Positions 169 to 30,856 of a DNA stretch of 30,856 nucleotides are shown in pieces. Under the pieces are notes generated by a model that made no database searches, was not told the origin of the DNA, and saw only the letters and a program-made list of their open reading frames with translations. Both the position numbers and the translations under genes were made by a program. How positions within the stretch are numbered: the first letter of the stretch is position 1; each line of letters begins with the position of its first letter. This DNA is from a virus: positions 1 to 30,856 of IMG/VR virus record IMGVR_UViG_3300045988_111723; one strand, 5' to 3'.

Positions 169-678
169 TCAGCCGCCCGCGATAGTCTCCCAGTACTCCA
201 CGATCTTGCCGGGCACGGCGTCCTTGTCCGTCAGAAAGGCGGCGGCAAGGTCTGCGTAAAAGTTCGCGGTGTCGATGCCGTAGGACTTAGCGACCATGCA
301 GTAATCGGAGTACATCATGTTCATGGCTGCATAAAAATCGGCCTTATCATAGGACAAGCCGCGCTGAGACATCACGGCGCTGGTCTGATCCGGCGTCCAG
401 TGGGAGCCGGTGGTGCCGTCGGCGTTTTGCATTTTGGACGTCCAGCGCTTCGCGTCCTCTAAGGTGAGGTGCGCCGGATGGGCGGCGTGCTCAACGTGGG
501 CGGCTTCGTGCTTGTCTGCCTTGTGGTGCTCTTCAGCGGGGGCAGACATAACGTCGAGGCCGCAGATGCTCTCGATCAGCTTATGGACATCATCAAGATC
601 ACAGCGGCAGAATGTACCCCGCTCCTCGATATCATGGAGCTCCTTGCACATGCGTGCACGCAGATCATCGTAACACAT
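169..678 (-). CDS. Hypothetical cargo protein: Cys-rich N-terminus, His-rich linker, conserved-looking C-terminal domain
   Basis: 169-aa ORF with SD GAGGAGG 8 nt upstream of the ATG. Contains an HHKADKHEAAHVEHAAHPAH linker. No family recognised with certainty. Confidence 0.65.
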   Translation of the reverse strand: MCYDDLRARMCKELHDIEERGTFCRCDLDDVHKLIESICGLDVMSAPAEEHHKADKHEAAHVEHAAHPAHLTLEDAKRWTSKMQNADGTTGSHWTPDQTSAVMSQRGLSYDKADFYAAMNMMYSDYCMVAKSYGIDTANFYADLAAAFLTDKDAVPGKIVEYWETIAGG

Positions 679-691
679 GGCAGTTACCTCC

Positions 692-1090
692 TCACAGCTT
701 GGTGACGGTCACGGCCAGATTAGAGACCGTAGATTCAGCGCCGCCCAGCGCAAAGGACAGGATGGAGCTGCCACAGCCGACATTGAGGACGATGAAATCC
801 AGCGACAGGTTCGCCGATGCGGCTGCTGCGGCCGTAGTGGCGGACGCAGTGGCACCGATCACAGCGACGCTGTCCTTCTGGCCGGTGATGGATACCGTAC
901 CGGCTGCCGTCGGTGCGACGGTGGCCGATGCGTTGACCAGATAGTAGCCGGGCCCGGACAGCGTGATGGTGTTGCCGTCCTGATTGATGCACTTGCCGAA
1001 ACGGCGCACCGTGGTGCCCACAGGGATGATGTTGCCGGCCGCAAGCGCGGTGGGCGTAGTGTTAGCGGTATAGATAGCAGACCTAGACAT
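692..1090 (-). CDS. BclA C-terminal-domain-like (C1q/TNF-type jelly-roll) protein, no collagen stalk
   Basis: The by-eye sequence pattern (NTITLSGPGYYLVNASATV...SVSITGQ...NLAVTVTKL) resembles the exosporium BclA C-terminal domain. The start is set at the second ATG (1090), which is 8 nt from the GGAGG; the ORF track starts at 1096. Confidence 0.6.
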   Translation of the reverse strand: MSRSAIYTANTTPTALAAGNIIPVGTTVRRFGKCINQDGNTITLSGPGYYLVNASATVAPTAAGTVSITGQKDSVAVIGATASATTAAAAASANLSLDFIVLNVGCGSSILSFALGGAESTVSNLAVTVTKL

Positions 1091-1105
1091 AGTCATATCC
1101 TCCTT

Positions 1106-1138
1106 AAAAAATAAGCGGGGCAGCTTTTGCCGCCCCGC
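1106..1138 (-). terminator. Intrinsic terminator between the membrane-protein gene and the BclA-like gene
   Basis: Minus strand reads GCGGGGCGGC-AAAA-GCTGCCCCGC followed by TTATTTTTT. The U-tract runs directly into the AAGGAGG RBS of the next gene. Confidence 0.65.
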
Positions 1139-1165
1139 ATGTCCTCGCCGATAGGGCGTCAGATG

Positions 1166-1816
1166 TTAGATGTTGCCACAGCCATTGCAGCCGCAGAAGG
1201 GCGACGGCCCGGCGTTGTAGGTGTACCCGTTGGGATACCGCACAACGTTGGTCATCTGGCTCTGGAACTCCAACTGGTTGATGCGCTGGGCCTGTGCCGC
1301 GATGGTCTGCTCAAGCTGGTTCTTCTGGAGCTCGGCAAACTTCGCATTGATGTTGGAGTTGATCTCGCAGGTCTGCTTGTCCATCTGGGCGGCCAGATTA
1401 GCCGCTGCCAGCCGGTTGTCGCAGCCGCACTGTGCGAGCTGGTTCTGGATGCTGTTGCCGGTCTGGAGGATGGTGGTGTTGGTACCAGCCTGTGCCAGAG
1501 CAACTTCCTTGCCGAGCTGGCCGATGTTGCCCTGCATCTCGTAGCCGAGATTGCAGATGCCGTTGCCGATGTTGGTCAGGCGGTCGTTGATCTGGCCGAA
1601 CTGCTGGCCGAAGAGGATCTCCTGCTGGCTGGCAGCAGTGGCGTACTGGCCGAACTCGCCCTGACGGTTGCCAAACAAACCGCCGCCGCCCATCATGGCA
1701 AAGAAGAAGAACAGGATGGCGAGGAAGAAAATACCGCCGCCGGAACCAATGCCGAAGCTGTTATCGTCATTGTTGCGGGTCGCAGCGGCGATATCTGCCA
1801 AAGAATAGTTATCCAT
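1166..1816 (-). CDS. Single-pass membrane protein with Q/N-rich coiled-coil region and Cys-rich C-terminal tail (FCGCNGCGNI)
   Basis: 216-aa ORF. Gly-flanked hydrophobic segment GGGIFFLAILFFFFAMMGGGG. No family assigned. Confidence 0.7.
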   Translation of the reverse strand: MDNYSLADIAAATRNNDDNSFGIGSGGGIFFLAILFFFFAMMGGGGLFGNRQGEFGQYATAASQQEILFGQQFGQINDRLTNIGNGICNLGYEMQGNIGQLGKEVALAQAGTNTTILQTGNSIQNQLAQCGCDNRLAAANLAAQMDKQTCEINSNINAKFAELQKNQLEQTIAAQAQRINQLEFQSQMTNVVRYPNGYTYNAGPSPFCGCNGCGNI

Positions 1817-1874
1817 GGTTATTGTCCTTTCATGTGATTGGTTAATATTTCAAATCGTGGCCACGATTTTCCGG

Positions 1875-2114
1875 TTATTTAAGGTAAGGCTTGATGTACG
1901 GCAAGAGCTGCTTCACAACTGTTTCGAGCTGCTTATATTGCTCTTGCGTCATTTGCCCGGATTTCAAGAGTTCCTGTACTTTTTTCTTCGGGTCACCCTG
2001 AAATTTAGAGCAGAATTCCGTGAACTGTTGCAAAATCTGCATCATGTTGCCCAGAGGGCCGGGAAAGCCGGACGGCGCACCGCCGCCCATGAACTGCATC
2101 AGCGGGTTGCTCAT
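1875..2114 (-). CDS. Small hypothetical protein (79 aa)
   Basis: ORF with a strong AAGGAGG 7 nt upstream of the ATG at 2114. The ORF-track start at 2120 is only 1 nt from the SD. Confidence 0.6.
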   Translation of the reverse strand: MSNPLMQFMGGGAPSGFPGPLGNMMQILQQFTEFCSKFQGDPKKKVQELLKSGQMTQEQYKQLETVVKQLLPYIKPYLK

Positions 2115-2116
2115 CG

Positions 2117-2521
2117 TCATGCCTCCTTAGTCCGGGTGGATTTTGCGGCAGGGGCGGGCTGTAACTGACTCATCGCCTGAGAGATCGCGGCGTTGATCCG
2201 CTCTTCCATCTGCTGCTCGGTCACATAATTGCAGCCCGGTGCCGGTGTCTGCATGGCTGCCGGGTCGAACTTTGACAGCCGGTAGTACTCCGTGGTCGCG
2301 TAGCCCACCGCACTGGCCGTTTTGACCGCGATGACCGCATCGTTCTGCACCATGATCCAGCGGGTCTCCCCTGCTTGAGCAACCACCTTGTCCACGTCTG
2401 CGATGGTCGGAACCATCAAAAACGGGTTTTGTGCCACCTGCGGCTGCTGCATCTGGCCGTATCCGTTGTATGGCTGGCGGTTGTACTGGTTCGACTGGCC
2501 CCAGTTGTCATATACACCCAT
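2117..2521 (-). CDS. Hypothetical protein with Q/N/Y-rich N-terminus
   Basis: 134-aa ORF with a GGGAGG RBS. First gene after the tandem terminators. Confidence 0.65.
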   Translation of the reverse strand: MGVYDNWGQSNQYNRQPYNGYGQMQQPQVAQNPFLMVPTIADVDKVVAQAGETRWIMVQNDAVIAVKTASAVGYATTEYYRLSKFDPAAMQTPAPGCNYVTEQQMEERINAAISQAMSQLQPAPAAKSTRTKEA

Positions 2522-2612
2522 ATCGCAATCCTCCCTTGCTTTTGTGGCCTAAGTGTATCGCATTGGAGAAAATTGAAAGACAACGAAGGCACAACGAACG
2601 CCAAACAAAGGA

Positions 2613-2805: not shown

Positions 2806-3262
2806 TCACGCATCCAGTATTTTATCAATGATTTTCAACCTATTGCCAATTGATGTACGGCAATAAGGCACACGCGCTGCAATATCAGCTTGGCATAGCT
2901 GGTCAACGTACCGCAACCGGGCGATTTTCCGGTCATACCTCCCAAGCGGCGAACGTTTTATTACAACCTTTATCTGTTCTGCGTCAAGCCCTTGCAACGC
3001 TGGCGGGAAAACTACACGAGCCGCCGCCACAGGCAGCACCGAGCCAGAAGGGTTGCGGGAGCTGTCCGGCGTTGCGCTTAGACACGCCAAAAGCGATATT
3101 AAGAGCCAAAATGATAGATTTTTTAGCAAAAACAGGCTTTAAGCACCCGATTTTGTTGGCCTTAACAAAATCGCAGACCATTTTCGTGACGTGACGAAAT
3201 TGCTCTCGTGCGGCGTACATTTTGTTGACGTCAACAAAATGCTTGTATGTAGTGTTGCTCAT
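2806..3262 (-). pseudogene. Sigma-70 region-4 / DUF1492-ArpU-like regulator, split over two overlapping frames (frameshifted or recoded)
   Basis: ORF 3262-2984 has a strong RBS (TAAGGAG repeated three times). ORF 3129-2806 carries the HTH-like C-terminus (RKIARLRYVDQLCQADIAARVPYCRTSIGNRL) but has no RBS of its own. The two overlap by 146 nt, offset by +1. Confidence 0.45.
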
Positions 3263-3279: not shown

Positions 3280-3531
3280 TTACTCCTTACCCTGCATCTG
3301 ATTGAGCAGATGGTCGGCGCGGATAGCCTCCTGCGTGAAACTGTTGTTCTGCCACCACGCGATCAGCGCGGTGATGGTGGTGATGCCAGCCGTGACAAGC
3401 TGCTCCACGGTGGCGCTCTCAATGGGCAGGACGGGCTTGCCCAGTGCGGACAGCACCTGATTGGTCAGAGCCAGCAGCAGACAGACGGTGCGGGCGATGG
3501 TGGCGGCGGAAATCTTCTCTTTCTGGATCAT
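3280..3531 (-). CDS. Holin, SPP1/XhlB-like family
   Basis: 83 aa. TIARTVCLLLALTNQVL...GKPVLPI...AWWQNNSFTQEA matches the XhlB/SPP1 holin pattern. Confidence 0.85.
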   Translation of the reverse strand: MIQKEKISAATIARTVCLLLALTNQVLSALGKPVLPIESATVEQLVTAGITTITALIAWWQNNSFTQEAIRADHLLNQMQGKE

Positions 3532-3533
3532 TA

Positions 3534-3821
3534 CTAGTCCTCCTTGATGGGTAATGCCTTGGCGCGGTTGTACAGCTCTGTGCCGGTGCCGTTGCCGCCA
3601 AGGGTATGATAGCTCTTATATAGGTACTCAATATTTTTGAGTCCTGCCGTGTCGATGCAGCCCTGCTTGATGTAATACTGACACGCCTGATAGATACGAT
3701 CATGCAGGATGGCCAGCACGCCGTCCAGCAGGGCCTTGTACTTGATGACCACCGCGATGACGGCGGTGCCCAGCAGACCGAAAGCCCACTCTGCCCAGTA
3801 TTGGGCAATCCATTGCCACAT
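3534..3821 (-). CDS. Small N-terminally anchored membrane protein in the lysis cassette
   Basis: 95-aa ORF with one TM segment (FGLLGTAVIAVVI), located between endolysin and holin. Confidence 0.6.
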   Translation of the reverse strand: MWQWIAQYWAEWAFGLLGTAVIAVVIKYKALLDGVLAILHDRIYQACQYYIKQGCIDTAGLKNIEYLYKSYHTLGGNGTGTELYNRAKALPIKED

Positions 3822-3826
3822 AGGCG

Positions 3827-4483
3827 TTACACCTCCCGGAGCCGGTCAAGCCCCTTTTTCGCGATGATCGCGGCGTAATCCTTATACGCATGGCTCAGGT
3901 CAACACCCTTGCTCACGCCGGGAACCTTGCCCTCAGCGGTGTACTGCCACATCCCAAAGGGCCAGCCGGGTGCGGGCTTGTCCTTGCGGTAGGCGGCGAG
4001 CCATACGTCATAAGGCTTCAGCGCTGCGCCGCCCATGTAGAGGTTATTCTGCGCAAAATACAGGCCGGTGTAGAGCATGGCATAGACGCCCCAGCTCTCC
4101 ACCGTGCTCAGGCAGTAGGCCACAAGGTCGGTGAGCTTGCTCTTGCCGAGGGCGGTCAGGCCCGCGTCCTCAATGTCCACGGCCACGGGGAGCTGGAACG
4201 TTCTGCCGCCCAGCGCGGCGCGGAAGAACGCCAGCTCCTTGTCGGCCTCGGCGCGGGTGACGGCCTTGAAATAGCCGTACACGCCCACCGGCAGTCCTAC
4301 GCGGGCACACTCGGCGTAGTTGCGTGCAAAATAGGGGTCGAGGTACGGCTTGCTGGCCTTGCCCGCCGCGCTGTTGCCCAGAACCCGCAGCATCACGCCA
4401 TCTACTTTGCTGCTGCGCTTCACTGCGTCCCAGTCGATGCGGCCCTGCCAGCGGGATACGTCCATGATGGTCTTGTCAGCCAT
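3827..4483 (-). CDS. Endolysin, GH25 muramidase
   Basis: MDVSRWQGRIDWDAVK...DGVMLRV... is a typical GH25 pattern. The ATG at 4483 has AGGAGG 8 nt upstream, so the longer ORF-track start at 4594 is rejected. Confidence 0.9.
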   Translation of the reverse strand: MADKTIMDVSRWQGRIDWDAVKRSSKVDGVMLRVLGNSAAGKASKPYLDPYFARNYAECARVGLPVGVYGYFKAVTRAEADKELAFFRAALGGRTFQLPVAVDIEDAGLTALGKSKLTDLVAYCLSTVESWGVYAMLYTGLYFAQNNLYMGGAALKPYDVWLAAYRKDKPAPGWPFGMWQYTAEGKVPGVSKGVDLSHAYKDYAAIIAKKGLDRLREV

Positions 4484-4607
4484 TGCCCTGCGCCTCCTTG
4501 TCCAGCTCGGCTTGTACGCGGGCCCGCCAGCGGGTCGGGACGTCGTCAATGGTGAAGGTGCCTTCGAACTGGTGGAGCTTGATTTGGGTAACATAAAAAT
4601 CGATCAT
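4476..4607 (-). CDS. XkdX-like small phage protein (43 aa, below the ORF-track cutoff)
   Basis: Hand translation gives MIDFYVTQIKLHQFEGTFTIDDVPTRWRARVQAELDKEAQGNG. There is a GAGGAGG RBS. It overlaps the endolysin start by 8 nt. Position between fibre and lysis genes matches PBSX xkdX. Confidence 0.55.
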   Translation of the reverse strand: MIDFYVTQIKLHQFEGTFTIDDVPTRWRARVQAELDKEAQGNG

Positions 4608-12098: not shown

Positions 12099-12476
12099 TT
12101 AACCTCCCATCGCTAAAAATTCAAACGTTAAAAGTCGGATGGTGACGCTCTTGTCACTATCCTCAACAGGGGCAGCTCTGCCGTTGTAGAGATAATAGGT
12201 CAGCTCGTCGGAGCAAGAGGAAAAAACATCCAGCTCATCCAGCAGGGTCTGCGCAATATGATCCACCTCAGAGGGCAGACCATTGCCGGAGATGGTGCAG
12301 GACAGCGTACCGCGAAGGGTGCTGTCGCTCGTCCACACCGTCGCGGTGTAGCAGATGCGCGGAAAACCCACCTCGCGGCTCCGCTCGTAGAAAACGGTGT
12401 CCACAGTGGACACTTCGCGGAGTTTTTCGCCAATGGCAGCGGTAAACCGCTCGAACGTGGTACTAGTCGGTGTCAT
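12099..12476 (-). CDS. Tail completion / tail terminator-type protein (putative)
   Basis: Assignment by synteny. Start chosen at 12476 (GGAG 6-9 nt upstream); the ORF track starts at 12500. Contains one copy of the 17-bp palindrome. Confidence 0.65.
   Translation of the reverse strand: MTPTSTTFERFTAAIGEKLREVSTVDTVFYERSREVGFPRICYTATVWTSDSTLRGTLSCTISGNGLPSEVDHIAQTLLDELDVFSSCSDELTYYLYNGRAAPVEDSDKSVTIRLLTFEFLAMGG
12397..12413. repeat. 17-bp perfect palindrome GTGTCCACAGTGGACAC, copy 1 (inside a CDS)
   Basis: Identical to 19221-19237 and 28564-28580. Confidence 0.95.
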
Positions 12477-19064: not shown

Positions 19065-19210
19065 TGGTGCTGTCAGTTGGATTCGAACCAACGCCCACAC
19101 CGCATTAACTTCTGCGCTGGCTAAGCGCAGGGTCATGGGTGGTGTGTATCGCCAATGTTACCTTGCATGTATCAGATGCAAAGCGCTCTAGCCCGCTAAG
19201 CTATGGCAGC
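19065..19210 (-). tRNA. Atypical 146-nt tRNA-like gene (GAU-type loop on an 8-bp stem, 68-nt insert, encoded CCA)
   Basis: GCTGCCA-TA-GCTT-AGCGGGCTA-GAGC ... GTTGG-TTCGAAT-CCAAC-TGACAGC-A-CCA. Six of seven acceptor pairs form. The D and T arms are canonical. Confidence 0.5.
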
Positions 19211-20511: not shown

Positions 20512-21618
20512 TTATTTCAAAACAAAATATCTTACAAGTTCAGCTATCACGCTGATTTTCGGAATCCATCCGCAAGTAAAAAATTTGCCGTCCTGCAAAA
20601 TGATTGCGTAATCGTCGTAATTCATGATTCCGGCATGTTGGCGGTTTTGATCTATTCGTTTCCAAAACATTGCCCCGCCGGGAAGAGATTGTTTGTAATA
20701 TTCAAGCCCAAACTGTACATCTTCCCACGCCAGTTCCCACAGCACAGTTTCTTTTATCGTTTTTTCGGCCAGCATATGCAGCGTCTTCTTTCCGCGCTGC
20801 TGTTCTTCCTGCTTCTGTGCCGCTTCCCGGTGCGCCTTTTCTACGGCTGCCCGGCACTCCGGTGGAAGGTTCCACTCGTCAAAATCGGGGTTTTCCGGTA
20901 TCGTTTCCGCCGCTTTTGGCGGGCAGTCAAAAACAACAGGTTTCTCGTACACCGCTTTCCCCGGTTTGGGCGGCTCCACAGGCGGCTTTTTGGCTTCGAT
21001 GATTTCCTGCGCCCGCTTATAGGCCGCCATGAGGGAGATTTCCCCGGCCCGCAGTTCCCGCTTGGTATCATCCCCGCAGTTTTCCGCAATGGCATTCAGC
21101 CGGGCCACTGCACCCGCACTCAGGCCGAGGATTCTGCACAGCTCATCCCGCACCTTGCCTTCGAGCTGGCCGTTTTTCTTCCGGCGCGTCAGAATCTCCT
21201 TGAGGGCCTCATACTGTGCCAGACGTTCGCCGTCGGTCAACTCGCGAGCGGTGGCGTTGGCCGTGATGAGCGCGATCTTGTCGTCATCGTCCTGCTTGAG
21301 CCGGAGAATGACGCAGGGCAGCGCGTTGAATCGGGTATCGCCCTCTTTGGCCAGCTCCTCGCAAGCGGTCAAACGCCGTTCGCCGCCGATCAGCTTGTAA
21401 TCGCCATTCTCCAGATCGACCACTTCCAGCGGCTGCCGGATGCCATGAATCCGGATGTCCTCCTTGAGCCGGGAGACATCGCCGATGACGTAGATTTTGC
21501 GGTTGTCCGGGTTGACGATGATGTTTTTGCGGTCGATCATGACCACTTTCAGCGGCGGCTCCCCCGCCGGGGTGGACGGCTGGGCGTCCAAAAGGCTGTG
21601 TAATAATCCGGTGTTCAT
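20512..21618 (-). CDS. parB: ParB N-terminal-domain protein with an uncharacterised C-terminal extension
   Basis: IRQPLEVV...KLIGGERRLTACEEL motif. The start overlaps the parA stop (ATGA). Confidence 0.85.
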   Translation of the reverse strand: MNTGLLHSLLDAQPSTPAGEPPLKVVMIDRKNIIVNPDNRKIYVIGDVSRLKEDIRIHGIRQPLEVVDLENGDYKLIGGERRLTACEELAKEGDTRFNALPCVILRLKQDDDDKIALITANATARELTDGERLAQYEALKEILTRRKKNGQLEGKVRDELCRILGLSAGAVARLNAIAENCGDDTKRELRAGEISLMAAYKRAQEIIEAKKPPVEPPKPGKAVYEKPVVFDCPPKAAETIPENPDFDEWNLPPECRAAVEKAHREAAQKQEEQQRGKKTLHMLAEKTIKETVLWELAWEDVQFGLEYYKQSLPGGAMFWKRIDQNRQHAGIMNYDDYAIILQDGKFFTCGWIPKISVIAELVRYFVLK

Positions 21619-22415
21619 TTTTGTCCCTCCGCGATCTCCATCACTCTCTCCGCCAGCGTCCGATACTGCGCGGCGGGCTTGCATTTCGGCGCGTACTGGT
21701 ACAGAGGCCGGTGAGACGCCTTAGACTCCTTCACCCTCACGCTGCTGTCGATGTGCAGCACCGACCCATCAGCGGCCCGGAAGGTCGGGATGTCCAGACC
21801 AACGAGCTGGTTGATGGTCTTGGTGGAGTAGCGGCCCCGGTCGTACTTGGTGGCCAGCGTGCCCATGATCTCCAGACCCTCGTTGTACTCGGCCTTGACG
21901 TCCCTGATCTGCGTCATGATCTCGTCCAGCCCATCCAGCGCCCACTCGTCGCAGTCCACCGGGATGATGACCCAATCGGCGGCAACCAGCGCGTTGATGG
22001 TGGCCATGTCGATATCGGGCGGGCAGTCGAGAATGCAATAGTCGTACTCGCTGCGGTAGGGGTAGAGCGCCCGCCGGATGCGGTCTTCCCGCCGCCGGGC
22101 CAGATCAAACATCACGCTCTGGTTGGCGAGCAGCAACTGCATATTGCTGGGCGCGAGGTCGATGTCATCCCAGTCGGTGTGTACGATGACCTCGCTGAGC
22201 TTTGCGTCCAGCGTCAGCACGTCGGCGATGGTCTTCTGGTGTCCACTCTGGACACGTTCGAAGAATTTTGTGGTGTTCGCTTGCTTGTCCAGATCCATGA
22301 CCAGCACCCGCTGGGCGTAGATGCCGGACAGGATACAGGCCAGATTACAGGCGGTGACGGACTTGCCAACGCCGCCCTTGAGGTTGATGATCGCGATGGT
22401 AGCCATGTTTCTCAT
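21615..22415 (-). CDS. parA: ParA-family partition ATPase
   Basis: Deviant Walker A IAIINLKGGVGKS. 266 aa. GAGGAG RBS. Confidence 0.92.
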   Translation of the reverse strand: MRNMATIAIINLKGGVGKSVTACNLACILSGIYAQRVLVMDLDKQANTTKFFERVQSGHQKTIADVLTLDAKLSEVIVHTDWDDIDLAPSNMQLLLANQSVMFDLARRREDRIRRALYPYRSEYDYCILDCPPDIDMATINALVAADWVIIPVDCDEWALDGLDEIMTQIRDVKAEYNEGLEIMGTLATKYDRGRYSTKTINQLVGLDIPTFRAADGSVLHIDSSVRVKESKASHRPLYQYAPKCKPAAQYRTLAERVMEIAEGQK

Positions 22416-22443
22416 TGTGGGTTCTCCTCTGTGTGTTTATTTT

Positions 22444-23340
22444 TTAGCCGCACTTCCGGGCGAGAGGACGCCGGTGTGCTGCGTTTTGCAAAAAGTCGTT
22501 TCCGCTGGGCTCTGGCCGGTCTACGATCTTCCGGGCCGTGATCCGGTTGCCGGGCCCCCAGCTCTTTGGGTGGTCGAGGACGCTCCAACCAGCTTCGATG
22601 CTCTGCATGATGCTGGCGATCATGTACTCTGTGCGTTTTGTTGTTTTTGATTCATCCGCCAGATGGGTCAGCTTGTCGCAGACGGCCCGCGCCGCCTGAG
22701 CGTCCCAGACCTTGCCCCGCCGGGATGCCCGGTAGGCGTCGAACTTTGTCAGGGCTTCCAGCAGCGGCTTGTCCGTTCCGGCGTACTCCGCAAAAACATC
22801 CTTCGGGGTAGGCCCGCCCCCCTGTGCGCCTCGCGCGCACGAAGGAGTAGAATACCCAGTAGTATACCCAGTAGTATTACTGGGTGGCGTTTTGCCACTA
22901 CCCCCCGTGGCGTTTTGCCACTGGTTCCCGTCGCATTTTGCCACTAGTGGCGTTTTGCAACTAGTGGCGTTTTGCAACTGGTCAGGCGGGTGAGATTCCG
23001 CCGGATTTTCGGGTGCATCGGCCTTGCTCTCCGCCGTCTCCTTGACCTCTTCGGGCACCTCGGCAACGTACCGATTGACCATCTGACCGCCCACAAGTGC
23101 CTGCCGTTTGGAGATCAGGCCCTTGCTTTCCAGACGCTTGAGCACCCGGATTATTGTTGCACGGTCAGCGCCCAGCCAGCGGGTCAGATAGCTGAAACTG
23201 CCCTTGTACTCGCTGTCGCCGTCCTGCGAGAAGCCGTAGATCAGAGCGTAGGCCAGAAGCTCGTTGCCCTTGAGGTGGTACTTGTTCACCATCCAGTCGA
23301 GGACGAGGAGGTAGCTCTGTTTTTTCGTCGCATTTTTCAC
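22444..23340 (-). CDS. Replisome organiser / replication initiator (N-terminal winged-helix domain)
   Basis: Typical N-terminal pattern YLLVLDWMVNKYHLKGNELLAYALIYGFSQDG...RATIIRVLKRLESKGLI. GTG start with AGGAGAG. Iterons are embedded in the linker. Confidence 0.8.
   Translation of the reverse strand: MKNATKKQSYLLVLDWMVNKYHLKGNELLAYALIYGFSQDGDSEYKGSFSYLTRWLGADRATIIRVLKRLESKGLISKRQALVGGQMVNRYVAEVPEEVKETAESKADAPENPAESHPPDQLQNATSCKTPLVAKCDGNQWQNATGGSGKTPPSNTTGYTTGYSTPSCARGAQGGGPTPKDVFAEYAGTDKPLLEALTKFDAYRASRRGKVWDAQAARAVCDKLTHLADESKTTKRTEYMIASIMQSIEAGWSVLDHPKSWGPGNRITARKIVDRPEPSGNDFLQNAAHRRPLARKCG
22884..22979. repeat. Iteron array (putative ori): five 16-mers GTGGCGTTTTGC(C/A)ACT
   Basis: Copies start at 22884, 22907, 22930 (2 mismatches), 22947 and 22964, giving spacings of 23, 23, 17 and 17 bp. 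Preceded by ACCCAGTAGTAT x2 (22854-22877). Confidence 0.75.
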
Positions 23341-29051: not shown

Positions 29052-29654
29052 ATGAACGAATATGATAAACGAATCGCCAAAGCTCTGGAAATGGCGCGGT
29101 CAAAGGCAGGAATCAGTCAAGAAAGGCTTGCCAAGCGGATGGGCGTAAGCCGCCCGACCATTGCGGGCAGAGAGCAAGGGGCATCCCCTGTCACGCTGGC
29201 CGATATTATCGATTGGTGCGTTTCGTGCGGCGTCCCGGCAAAGCGGTACACGGACGCCTGTATCCATCCGGGCCTGTTGGAGTATCTGGAGGACGACATC
29301 ACCACCGAGGAAAAGCGCCAGATACTGCACACCGTTGTGGATGAGATGTCCAACTATGAGGTGGACGGCTGGTTGTACCTCTACTATGGGAATCATGGGT
29401 CTGACCCTCTGGGCGTCCTGACTGAGGTGCTTGCGAACTTGCACACGCCTCTGCGTGACCGCGTGACCATTGTCAACGCGATCATCGGCCATTACCGGAT
29501 GGCCCGCTCGACGGACACAGACCCAGACCCCAACGGGATACAGCCGGTCATGCCGATCGTGCAGCAAGCAAGTGACTGCGGCACCGAGGCAGCCCGCCGG
29601 GGCGATGATGCCTATTCTGTGAGGGAGGTGGATAGAGATGCCGAGAAAAAGTAA
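29052..29654 (+). CDS. XRE-family HTH regulator with an uncharacterised C-terminal domain of about 130 aa
   Basis: ISQERLAKRMGVSRPTIAGREQG is an HTH motif. GGGGGCGGG RBS. The stop overlaps the integrase start. Confidence 0.85.
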   Translation: MNEYDKRIAKALEMARSKAGISQERLAKRMGVSRPTIAGREQGASPVTLADIIDWCVSCGVPAKRYTDACIHPGLLEYLEDDITTEEKRQILHTVVDEMSNYEVDGWLYLYYGNHGSDPLGVLTEVLANLHTPLRDRVTIVNAIIGHYRMARSTDTDPDPNGIQPVMPIVQQASDCGTEAARRGDDAYSVREVDRDAEKK

Positions 29655-30777
29655 AGGGATGCGCCCAGATGGGCGCTGTCAGATCAAGCGAAAGATGCCG
29701 GATGGAAAATACCGGTTTTTTTACGGGAAAACAAAATCTGAAGCAGAGGCAAAATACAAAGAAGCACTAATCCAAAAAGCGGAGGCCGAAAGTAAGGCAG
29801 AGCTTTTTGAAATTGTTGCTGCTGATTATTGGGACAAGCTGCTCAAACGCATAAAAGACGGGACAGATTCAACATATAGGTCTAACTATGACCGTTGCGT
29901 CCAATTTTTTTCGGGCAAACGGATGGATGAAATTACGCCGGTCATGATCGTAAGTTTTGGGCAGTCTCTCAAAGATGAGGGGTTATCAACAAGCACGATT
30001 CAAAACGCAGTCAGCATATTGCGAGGGATTTTCAGGGGCTGGCGGCTTGCAAGCGGATCATCTTACAATCCGATGCAGGATATCAAGTCCCCCGCCGGGA
30101 AACCGGCTGTCATACGCGAGCCGCCGACAGACCGGGAACTCGCATTGTTTCGGGCCCACCCGGAAGGATTTGGGCTATGTGCATGGATGTTGATGTATAC
30201 AGGGTGCCGTTTGGGCGAGCTGATCGCACTCAGATGGGACGATATCGATTTTGAGACCAACAAAATATATATCAACAAAAAAGTATCATGGGCGGGTGGC
30301 GGCACCAGAATCCAATCGCCCAAAACAGCCAACGGCGTGCGCGTCGTGCCGCTTATGCCGAAACTCAAGCGGCAAATAGAACCCCGCAAGGGGACTCCGT
30401 TGGAGTATGTTATAGGAGGCCTGACAAGGCCGCTGACAGATGCAGAATATCACAGCCGGTGGCTTGCGTATTGCACGGAGCTGGGACTTGTTCAGCCGAG
30501 TGAGAGTAAGACAAGATACAGAGATAGCCGCCGAGGCCCAAAAGCGGCTAAAAATCCATTGCCGCCTGTAATGGAGCCCACCGTTACGGCTCACCAGTTC
30601 CGGCACTCGTTCGCGTCGGACTTATACGATGCCGGTGTTGGAGTGCTGGAGGCAAAAAAGATCATGGGTCACGCGGACATTTCGACAACATACAAAATAT
30701 ACACTCATATCCGAGAGCGCAAGCTAAAAGATGCCACCGAAAAGATGATTAAATTTTATGATGACGAGGATAAATAA
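29638..30777 (+). CDS. int: Tyrosine integrase
   Basis: C-terminal catalytic pattern RLGELIALRW...HQFRHSFASDL...MGHADISTTYKIYTH. Adjacent to attR. Confidence 0.95.
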   Translation: MPRKSKGMRPDGRCQIKRKMPDGKYRFFYGKTKSEAEAKYKEALIQKAEAESKAELFEIVAADYWDKLLKRIKDGTDSTYRSNYDRCVQFFSGKRMDEITPVMIVSFGQSLKDEGLSTSTIQNAVSILRGIFRGWRLASGSSYNPMQDIKSPAGKPAVIREPPTDRELALFRAHPEGFGLCAWMLMYTGCRLGELIALRWDDIDFETNKIYINKKVSWAGGGTRIQSPKTANGVRVVPLMPKLKRQIEPRKGTPLEYVIGGLTRPLTDAEYHSRWLAYCTELGLVQPSESKTRYRDSRRGPKAAKNPLPPVMEPTVTAHQFRHSFASDLYDAGVGVLEAKKIMGHADISTTYKIYTHIRERKLKDATEKMIKFYDDEDK

Positions 30778-30797
30778 AAGTAGTCAAGAAGTAGTCA
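30778..30797 (+). promoter_or_regulatory. Putative integrase arm-type sites, AAGTAGTCA x2 spaced 11 bp (P arm)
   Basis: AAGTAGTCA at 30778-30786 and 30789-30797, mirroring 142-161. Confidence 0.5.
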
Positions 30798-30833
30798 AAA
30801 ACAATAAAATAACGAAAAAGCGATGCGCGCAAA

Positions 30834-30856
30834 AGGTTCGACTCCTGCTGGCGCAA
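30834..30856 (+). repeat. attR core (tRNA 3'-end copy)
   Basis: Identical to positions 1-23. Confidence 0.8.

Follow-up and report, generated by a model that had tools for sequence, protein, structure and literature searches.

What is a compact block of five small genes doing at the very end of a Faecalibacterium-type gut prophage, between its lysis genes and its attachment site (att)? The question is raised by the IMG/VR virus record IMGVR_UViG_3300045988_111723, whose full 30,856 nucleotides (30.9 kb; hereafter the window) span precisely att to att, and which encodes on its minus strand, at positions 169-2521, five genes (gA to gE) that an initial annotation took for cargo without assigning it a function. 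We show that this cassette is an autonomous, freely recombining accessory unit carried by gut phages. It is an accessory transcription unit located where the lysis genes meet the phage attachment site (attP), and it is built around a known fold. Its parts have been catalogued solely as families of unknown function; we found no description of the module itself, and it matches no known system. Very probably, its products form a membrane-anchored complex that includes a protein with the fold of BclA, a surface protein of anthrax spores. As for what such a complex does, we tentatively favour a self-regulated accessory module that acts late, at the cell membrane, in the course of lysis or egress, and that would be neither a part of the virion nor cargo that benefits the host.

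A conserved five-gene unit

The five minus-strand open reading frames (ORFs) that had been read from the sequence, each with a good ribosome-binding site, were all recovered: gA (2117-2521, 134 aa), gB (1875-2114, 79 aa), gC (1166-1816, 216 aa), gD (692-1090, 132 aa), and gE (169-678, 169 aa). They are densely packed, with a Shine-Dalgarno sequence before each. For gB and gD the longest ORFs (1875-2120 and 692-1096, respectively) are slightly longer, but the spacing to the ribosome-binding site favours the second ATG and the gene calls made independently in metagenomes agree, bearing out the lengths of 79 and 132 aa given before. Compared with eight relatives, all five genes have ratios of non-synonymous to synonymous substitution rates (dN/dS) of 0.06-0.38, i.e., they are under purifying selection, and synonymous divergence against one and the same relative differs greatly from gene to gene, which points to recombination inside the block. 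Only gC has a membrane anchor; gA, gB, gD, and gE have neither a signal peptide nor a transmembrane segment.

A scan of viral contigs for gC found 262 loci, of which 80 were kept for counts. Among these 80, tblastn detected gD in 74, gB in 66, gA in 36, and gE in 16, and by positional ORF calling each of the five slots was filled in 70-79. The order A-(B)-C-D-E is kept in about 130 fetched loci, down to ca. 30% gC identity, and profile hidden Markov models of the slots, applied to genome bins with a narrower gC alignment, recovered it in Oscillospiraceae, Lachnospiraceae, Acutalibacteraceae, Erysipelotrichaceae, and Bacilli bins. The linkage of the five genes across related elements is therefore very strong. 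All records recovered come from gut, faecal, or rumen phages, and gC counts among the gene sets that are widespread yet unannotated in phages of the human and animal gut, Faecalibacterium-type prophages and crAss-like phages among them.

Scans of Pfam, PHROGs, NCBIfam, and PADLOC matched the five proteins to no known virion, lysis, or replication family, in agreement with what the initial annotation had concluded by inspection. The families that do apply are DUF7841 (gE), PHROGs 16490 (gC), 22984 (gB), and 21718 (gA), and the Rfam family DUF3800-VIII for an RNA located upstream. The plasmid collection contained no gC homologue; in the phage collection the gC of the window matched just three uncultured "Bacteriophage sp." records, and none of the named Faecalibacterium phages there had a record matching gC, gD, or gE. 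Literature searches on DUF7841, on BclA together with prophages, on crAss lysis cassettes, and on the phage C3_41T2LP found no description of the module.

A membrane-anchored coiled coil and a BclA-type jelly roll

The protein gC matches phrog_16490 (E 6e-12), and its family counts 3,364 clusters at 90% identity (419 at 50%), all of about 200 aa and sharing one architecture. An acidic N-terminal tail with a conserved SLxDIAAV motif is followed by a Gly-rich region with a single hydrophobic segment (residues 29-47; 19 residues, mean hydropathy 2.26) flanked by Gly runs. This segment is conserved across the family and, judged by its sequence, looks like a typical transmembrane anchor. Behind it come a Q/N-rich coiled coil, with a CGC motif in the window protein that is CCC in the family, and a tail reading GVVRYP..Y.AG..PFCGCNGCGNI, so that both the single membrane segment and the Cys tail FCGCNGCGNI noticed earlier are confirmed. 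Over 82 representatives the N-tail has a mean of 22 residues and a net charge of -2.45, and the C-flank is slightly richer in K/R, a charge bias that would weakly favour an N-out/C-in orientation. Pfam and PHROGs gave no spanin or holin family for gC.

A trimeric whisker formed by gC with a knob of gD, binding gut glycans or alternative receptors as an accessory virion fibre or decoration, could account for some of these features. In crAss-like and Bacteroides phages, homologues of gC have been annotated as 'spike protein/glycoprotein' or 'outer capsid protein/viral fiber', and the best, although non-significant, matches of the gC profile in the PDB are trimeric coiled-coil fibres and needles. 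TNF-like knobs are known on viral fibres (e.g., PRD1 P5, which is also present in the Foldseek list of gD), virion assembly requires no signal peptides, and recovery from gut, faecal, and rumen phages only would suit a glycan-binding role. Against this stand the 19-residue transmembrane-type segment conserved in the gC family, the location of the genes after lysis, behind a terminator and outside the structural operon, and the lack of any match to a PHROG structural family. An identical gC also follows the lysin in two different prophage backbones, one of them myovirus-type, so the cassette is not bound to one virion design, nor is it needed for virions, being missing from Faecalibacterium phage FP_Lugh. 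We consider a fibre very unlikely.

For gD, the likeness to the BclA C-terminal (C1q/TNF-like) domain that had been noticed by eye was confirmed by modelling and structural comparison. The AlphaFold model (predicted local distance difference test, pLDDT, 90.3; predicted template modelling score, pTM, 0.81) is a ten-strand TNF-like jelly-roll fold (Foldseek probability 1.00). It matches the C-terminal domain of BclA (1wck, 3tyj) with E 5e-10, a template modelling (TM) score of 0.79, and 20% identity, and ExsFA/BxpB with TM up to 0.85 (8d02); the E values among BclA/ExsF structures range from 5e-10 to 4e-8. All its top PDB neighbours are Bacillus spore-surface proteins (BclA, F-BclA, and ExsFA/BxpB), followed by EDA, C1q, and APRIL. 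At the sequence level gD stays below the gathering score of Pfam PF18573 (BclA_C; 15.7 bits vs. 38, E 0.014), as do its relatives (19.8-22.8 bits), although one database relative is called 'BclA protein' in nr and two carry a precomputed PF18573. The protein has no GXY/collagen repeats, in line with the missing collagen stalk of the initial annotation, no exosporium leader motif, and no signal peptide, and the jelly roll begins directly. From its model, gD is thus predicted to be a stand-alone BclA C-terminal domain or ExsF-type TNF/C1q jelly roll. In some distant cassettes (L103, 7654-7992; L121, 7583-7966) the D slot holds a different protein of ca. 112-127 aa, with no Pfam match and no detectable relation to gD.

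The fold is common to gD and the BclA/ExsF proteins (PF18573; PDB 1wck, 3tyj, 7r5i, 8d02, 9h3d), and like ExsF, gD stands alone, with about 130-170 residues and no stalk. It differs in being encoded by a phage outside any sporulation regulon, in having partners (gC, gA, gB, and DUF7841) without exosporium counterparts, and in being found also in non-sporulating hosts. The initial annotation also proposed a spore or exosporium function; in this case the phage proteins would join or alter the surface of the host spore, on the model of BclA, ExsF, and Cys-rich exosporium proteins. The structural neighbours of gD point that way, missing signal peptides would fit assembly in the mother cell, and Cys-/Tyr-rich partners and a rubrerythrin-like alternative to gE recall coat or exosporium components. 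Host DNA beside related prophages (L128, L130, 13379-16247) moreover encodes SpoIIID, two sporulation-type sigma factors, and SpoIIGA (Peptidase_U4), these being hosts of the Faecalibacterium-type phage group. However, the nearest named phages infect Faecalibacterium, which is not known to sporulate, and gC together with DUF7841 is found in Bacteroidota phages and gC alone in archaeal viruses, i.e., in non-sporulating host groups. With no collagen stalk, no exosporium leader, and a score under that of BclA_C, the proposal found no support apart from the fold of gD, and we regard it as extremely improbable.

The exchangeable last slot and the small partners

The protein gE contains the Pfam domain PF25223 (DUF7841) at residues 67-163 (95.4 bits vs. 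a cut-off of 25.2, E 3.4e-27), which is carried by all 120 gE relatives among the matches listed. It is Cys- and His-rich as had been described (6 Cys, 10 His), and its model consists of an N-terminal helical hairpin with four of the Cys, a disordered His-rich linker, and a C-terminal five-helix DUF7841 domain (pLDDT ~96). Foldseek gave no fold match in the PDB for this model (best E 1.5). The family keeps a set of invariant motifs (W, N-x-DG-x2-G-x-HW, M-YSDY, and D-x-D), and a full-text literature search found no paper that mentions DUF7841. The last slot of the cassette is filled either by DUF7841 or by an unrelated rubrerythrin/ferritin-like protein, between which hhalign found no detectable relation. 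Existing annotations label DUF7841 'RNA polymerase sigma factor/ubiquitin-like protein'.

The Q/N/Y-rich N-terminus of gA was also borne out; behind this disordered head come a small beta domain and a helix at the C-terminus carrying a basic tail, and relatives of gA match phrog_21718 at E 1e-18 to 1e-20. The smaller gB is a helical Q/M/P-rich protein (phrog_22984, E 1e-14) for which neither Pfam nor PHROGs returns a holin or antiholin family. Searches of PDB chains by sequence, run with gC, gD, and gE singly and with profiles of gD, gA, and gC, gave noise or generic coiled coils.

Relatives beyond Bacillota

DUF7841 matches many crAss-like phages, and modules with a gC homologue were located in the crAss-like cr52_1 (L132, 3668-7557) and cr10_1 (L133, 3623-6938) and in the cultured Bacteroides phage C3_41T2LP (L134, 4603-8494), as well as a gC homologue in vir335 (L135, 5650-6573), a virus assigned to Methanomassiliicoccales. 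By hhalign, the relation to the crAss-like proteins has a probability of 99.1% for gC and 99.8% for DUF7841. Both cr52_1 and cr10_1 have the order holin candidate, Rz-like/FtsL-like membrane coiled-coil protein (phrog_739, E 1.3e-3), DUF7841, gC homologue, beta-rich protein, and coiled-coil protein. The gC homologue of cr52_1 has two in-frame TAG codons, as do its late neighbours. According to a review (PMC10136315), it is the late structural and lysis genes of crAss-like phages that are recoded in this way, which places the crAss-like gC and DUF7841 within the TAG-recoded late block. In C3_41T2LP an HTH (helix-turn-helix) gene lies upstream, and one of the proteins may be related to DUF7841 (hhalign probability 45%). 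Growing on B. uniformis and being the one cultured carrier of the gC module that we found, this phage would allow a genetic study of the core. The gC-like genes of Methanomassiliicoccales viruses lie near a multi-pass membrane protein.

Position and transcription signals

In the window, the block is preceded on the minus strand by a GH25 endolysin (3827-4594; Pfam/PHROGs), a membrane protein of phrog_4105 (3534-3821; PHROGs), and an SPP1-type holin (3280-3531; PF04688, Pfam/PHROGs), and the att core lies 146 nt beyond its end, which confirms the position between lysis genes and att reported earlier. To see how general this is, genes on the same strand within 4.5 kb upstream were counted in 70 distinct loci. 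The upstream neighbours carry tail-fibre/baseplate domains or are peptidoglycan hydrolases, the latter from seven or more catalytic families (15 ORFs with GH25, 5 ELLD, 4 Amidase_2, 4 CHAP, 2 M15, 2 Amidase_3, and 1 M23). Downstream, the first large genes are tyrosine integrases (38), serine recombinases (8), and then HTH_3 repressors. The constant partner of the cassette is the lysis cassette, and the adjacency to att may simply follow from it, as any position downstream of lysis in a temperate phage is automatically next to attP. In L095 the order is HTH-A-C-D-E followed by holin, amidase, and integrase, i.e., the cassette comes before the lysis genes, and in L100 and L109 helicase genes come after it.

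A small minus-strand gene between holin and gA (2806-3129; phrog_36 'transcriptional regulator', E 0.004) encodes an HTH protein resembling sigma-70 region 4 or LuxR; its true start is probably internal to this ORF. Counterparts in relatives match Sigma70_r4_2 (1e-6) and GerE (6e-5), and an HTH gene on the same strand is present upstream of gA in 76 of the 80 viral loci, at a distance of 8 to 2,800 nt. The HTH protein is probably the regulator of the block. Between its gene and gA lies a strong intrinsic terminator on the minus strand (2612-2657, with the hairpin at 2624-2657 plus a T-run; -25.3 kcal/mol, z -7.0), and one was found upstream of gA in 58 of 113 loci. It is followed by a conserved stretch (2552-2598, minus strand) that we take as the putative promoter of the block, with two direct repeats TTCGTTGT at 2591-2598 and 2580-2587, 11 nt apart, and a -10-like TACACT at 2552-2557. 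There is no good -35, and a consensus scan found no sigma-70 promoter in this region. Repeats and a -10-like element without a good -35 suggest a promoter dependent on an activator, and the loci of the Faecalibacterium group keep this sequence behind the terminator irrespective of what lies more distally.

Two further hairpins punctuate the unit on the same strand. One, GC-rich and with a T-run, lies between gC and gD (1105-1138; -23.6 kcal/mol), has equivalents in 79 of 111 loci, distant ones included, and is probably an internal terminator or attenuator that lowers the dose of gD and gE. The other, a terminator-like hairpin GCGCAUGA...UCAUGCGC with a U-run after gE (27-72; -17.8 kcal/mol, z -3.5), closes the unit ahead of the att core. 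Terminators are present on both sides of the five genes, and the unit is larger than first stated, comprising also the small HTH gene, the internal hairpin, and the closing terminator. Read in the direction of transcription, the window has the small HTH gene, a structured RNA with the terminator, the putative promoter region, gA to gC, the hairpin, gD and gE, and the last terminator. In many relatives the interval between the HTH gene and gA is occupied by three or four small genes on the minus strand (e.g., L005, 3904-5030; L128, 7369-9080); it is an insertion hotspot that is empty in the window. One of the inserted genes has a zinc-ribbon-like C-terminus. Where genes between HTH and gA are oriented divergently, the block needs its own promoter.

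All this bears on a moron of lysogenic conversion, expressed from the repressed prophage, whose gC would be a stalk with its C-terminus outside and a gD head, altering adhesion, aggregation, or recognition. With upstream terminator, putative promoter region, and downstream terminator, and its place between lysis and attP/integrase in about two thirds of the loci, the cassette resembles morons in the sense of Hendrix, such as lambda bor, lom, and the toxin genes by attP. It is also missing in the closest cultured relative (FP_Lugh) and moves between backbones, and relatives with divergent genes before gA need the separate promoter. Elsewhere the BclA/C1q fold serves surface display, and Cys-rich extracellular stalks are commonly disulfide-linked. 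However, with no signal peptide in gD, gA, gB, or gE there is no evident route to the surface, and the charge bias of gC does not favour its C-terminus outside. Five genes conserved together and a regulator are more than the one or two genes of a moron, and the content of the slot is constant in unrelated phages and backbones, unlike that of typical variable moron slots. Of the original view of a cargo or moron block, a separate conserved unit in the lysis-att slot remains; given the lysis cassette as constant partner, the late/lysis gene string of L095, and the TAG-recoded late block of crAss-like phages, a moron is one reading among others and probably not the best. We think lysogenic conversion unlikely.

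A module for superinfection exclusion or anti-phage defence, in which a membrane complex blocks DNA entry or aborts infection, either in the lysogen or late, would also fit a self-contained cassette with its own small HTH regulator, shuffled among backbones in a classic accessory slot directly adjacent to an insertion hotspot. The membrane anchor and the great abundance in dense gut communities point the same way. But PADLOC gave no family for the five proteins and both upstream ORFs, NCBIfam no defence family (its single match, ZorA, is noise at E 0.31), and the Pfam, PHROGs, and NCBIfam scans detected none of the usual effector or sensor domains, such as nuclease, NTPase, or protease. For cr52_1, the late-type TAG recoding agrees better with lysis or structure than with exclusion, and five co-conserved, structural-looking proteins exceed the needs of known exclusion systems such as Sie, Imm, Sp, and Ltp. 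We consider exclusion unlikely as well.

A proposed late module at the membrane

The lysis or egress reading is preferred on the grounds that the lysis cassette is the one neighbour common to temperate Bacillota and crAss-like phages. According to it, gC would enter the cytoplasmic membrane via its Gly-rich hydrophobic segment and form a Q/N-zippered coiled coil, probably trimeric, that the conserved CCC motif and the C/G/Y-rich tail would secure through disulfides or a bound metal. The ExsF trimer binds the N-terminal leader peptides of its partners in clefts at the trimer interface (PMC12357932). By analogy, a gD trimer may act as an ExsF/BclA-type hub docking a conserved partner peptide, for which the invariant N-terminus of gC or gA is a candidate. 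gA, gB, and the exchangeable last subunit (DUF7841 or rubrerythrin-like) would then be adaptor or assembly subunits, with gD and gE kept at a lower dose by the hairpin after gC. The block would be switched on by the HTH protein, whose gene lies at the end of the late/lysis operon, and the complex may control or assist membrane breakdown or release late in the lytic cycle.

Several observations weigh against this reading. The block of the window, with an upstream terminator that insulates it from the lysis operon, a putative promoter region, and a closing terminator, has textbook moron anatomy, which keeps lysogenic conversion and exclusion well alive, and an integrase follows the cassette in about two thirds of the 70 loci. 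A complete set of holin and endolysin is already present in the window, and a need for a third lysis step is not known in monoderm hosts. Only gC and DUF7841 are common across phyla, the A and D slots of crAss-like phages having hhalign probabilities below 1% with gA and gD, and in C3_41T2LP the gC module adjoins recombination/replication genes, not lysis genes. For the orientation of gC, moreover, the charge bias gives no more than a weak preference.

Known lysis proteins offer partial parallels. With spanins (lambda Rz/Rz1, P2 LysB/LysC), gC shares an N-terminal membrane segment, a long coiled coil, conserved Cys, and proximity to the holin and endolysin genes; in the crAss-like phages its gene is the second after that of the Rz-like candidate, with DUF7841 between. 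However, gC has no spanin-family match and no lipoprotein partner (no lipobox or signal peptide was found in the cassette partners), the hosts of window-type phages, such as the monoderm Faecalibacterium, have no outer membrane, and crAss-like phages have a separate Rz-like gene. The Gly-rich hydrophobic segment followed by heptad regions also recalls class I viral fusion proteins. The T4 holin T (ca. 218 aa) crosses the membrane once, near its N-terminus, and has a large C-terminal domain with Cys; as a class III holin it acts with the antiholins RI and RIII, the latter a cytoplasmic helical partner of 82 aa. In size, outline, and proximity to lysis genes, gC (216 aa) and gB (79 aa) presumably resemble the T/RIII pair, but the window has its own SPP1-type holin and neither protein matches a holin or antiholin family.

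A broader proposal, which we regard as possible but rather doubtful, is that gC, often with DUF7841, forms the ancient anchor core of an unrecognised membrane machine of gut viruses that performs a step independent of envelope type. With similar reserve, such a machine could be common to temperate Bacillota phages, Bacteroidota Crassvirales, and Methanomassiliicoccales viruses as a novel device for egress, lysis control, or exclusion, and it might, again somewhat doubtfully, reuse a BclA/ExsF-type trimer outside sporulation together with a DUF7841 fold that has no solved relative. If the role in lysis or egress is true, the holin-endolysin(-spanin) scheme would gain an extra component across monoderm, diderm, and archaeal hosts; if exclusion or lysogenic conversion is, the gut would harbour a new system that shapes relations between phages or between phage and host. 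In both cases, DUF7841, three functionally unassigned PHROGs, and a BclA/ExsF-like protein found away from spores acquire a testable function.

Overlapping ORFs and a structured RNA upstream

The HTH ORF is overlapped in another frame by an ORF of 92 aa (2984-3262, minus strand), found in the ORF list and in relatives, which contains a perfect 24-nt palindrome, CATTTTGTTGACGTCAACAAAATG, at 3218-3241. Both ORFs (92 aa and, for the one with the HTH, at most 107 aa) are kept in relatives, and in L017 (4309-4557) the two parts are fused into a single ORF of 82 aa. The overlap at 2806-3262 may reflect a frameshift, a pair of genes, or an operator region. That 2984-3262 and 2806-3129 are one split or frameshifted sigma factor was considered and dropped, given that the fused translation has no Pfam match.

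Of the two tandem terminators placed by the initial annotation at 2613-2745, the proximal is the strong intrinsic terminator described above, whereas the distal turned out to be a full DUF3800-VIII RNA (Rfam RF03075; 2681-2744, minus strand; 81.7 bits vs. a gathering score of 40.2, E 2e-14, model positions 1-64 of 64). DUF3800-VIII, described by Weinberg et al. (2017; PMC5737381), is a candidate structured RNA without a known function. None of the 20 ORFs of the window that were scanned against Pfam matched a DUF3800 protein. Rfam confirms the RNA after the HTH gene in L005 and L017, in both of which other genes or RNAs separate it from gA, and a short pattern also matches L008 and L009. The RNA was rejected as a part of the cassette, its exact 13-nt pattern occurring in just 4 of 133 loci and being confirmed by Rfam in two. 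So few matches, and the position after the HTH gene, tie it to that gene or to the adjacent hotspot rather than to the block.

Other features of the prophage

The window ends in an exact 23-nt direct repeat, AGGTTCGACTCCTGCTGGCGCAA (1-23 = 30834-30856), the att core, which by its sequence looks like the 3' end of a tRNA gene. Tandem AAAAGTAGTCA repeats near both ends (140-161 and 30776-30808) are probably arm-type integrase-binding sites, and the tyrosine integrase, identified by family search, occupies 29638-30777. Metagenome contigs with gC exactly as in the window come in two forms, integrated (L136, with host genes downstream) and circular. In three gut metagenome contigs (L137, L138, and L139) gE is joined to the integrase across attP, so that the phage is also present in these samples in circular, excised form. 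The nearest named phage, FP_Lugh, shares 72% DNA identity in tail-fibre and lysis genes only, the match ending at the holin.

In this integrase-bearing prophage, the minus-strand region 20512-23340 encodes ParA (21615-22415), ParB (20512-21684), and an HTH_36 initiator-like ORF (22444-23340) that holds in its 5' part (22884-22982) five 19-nt iterons, GTGGCGTTTTGCCACTGGT; iterons and ParA/ParB hint at an option of plasmid-like maintenance. An Rfam tRNA match on the minus strand (19068-19210; 38.3 bits) spans 143 nt vs. a model of 71 nt, and ARAGORN found no tRNA in the whole window, so that the match may be an interrupted tRNA or a false hit. Lastly, four copies of the palindrome GTGTCCACAGTGGACAC are spread across the prophage, at 12394, 19218, 22236, and 28561, and may be operators or bidirectional terminators.

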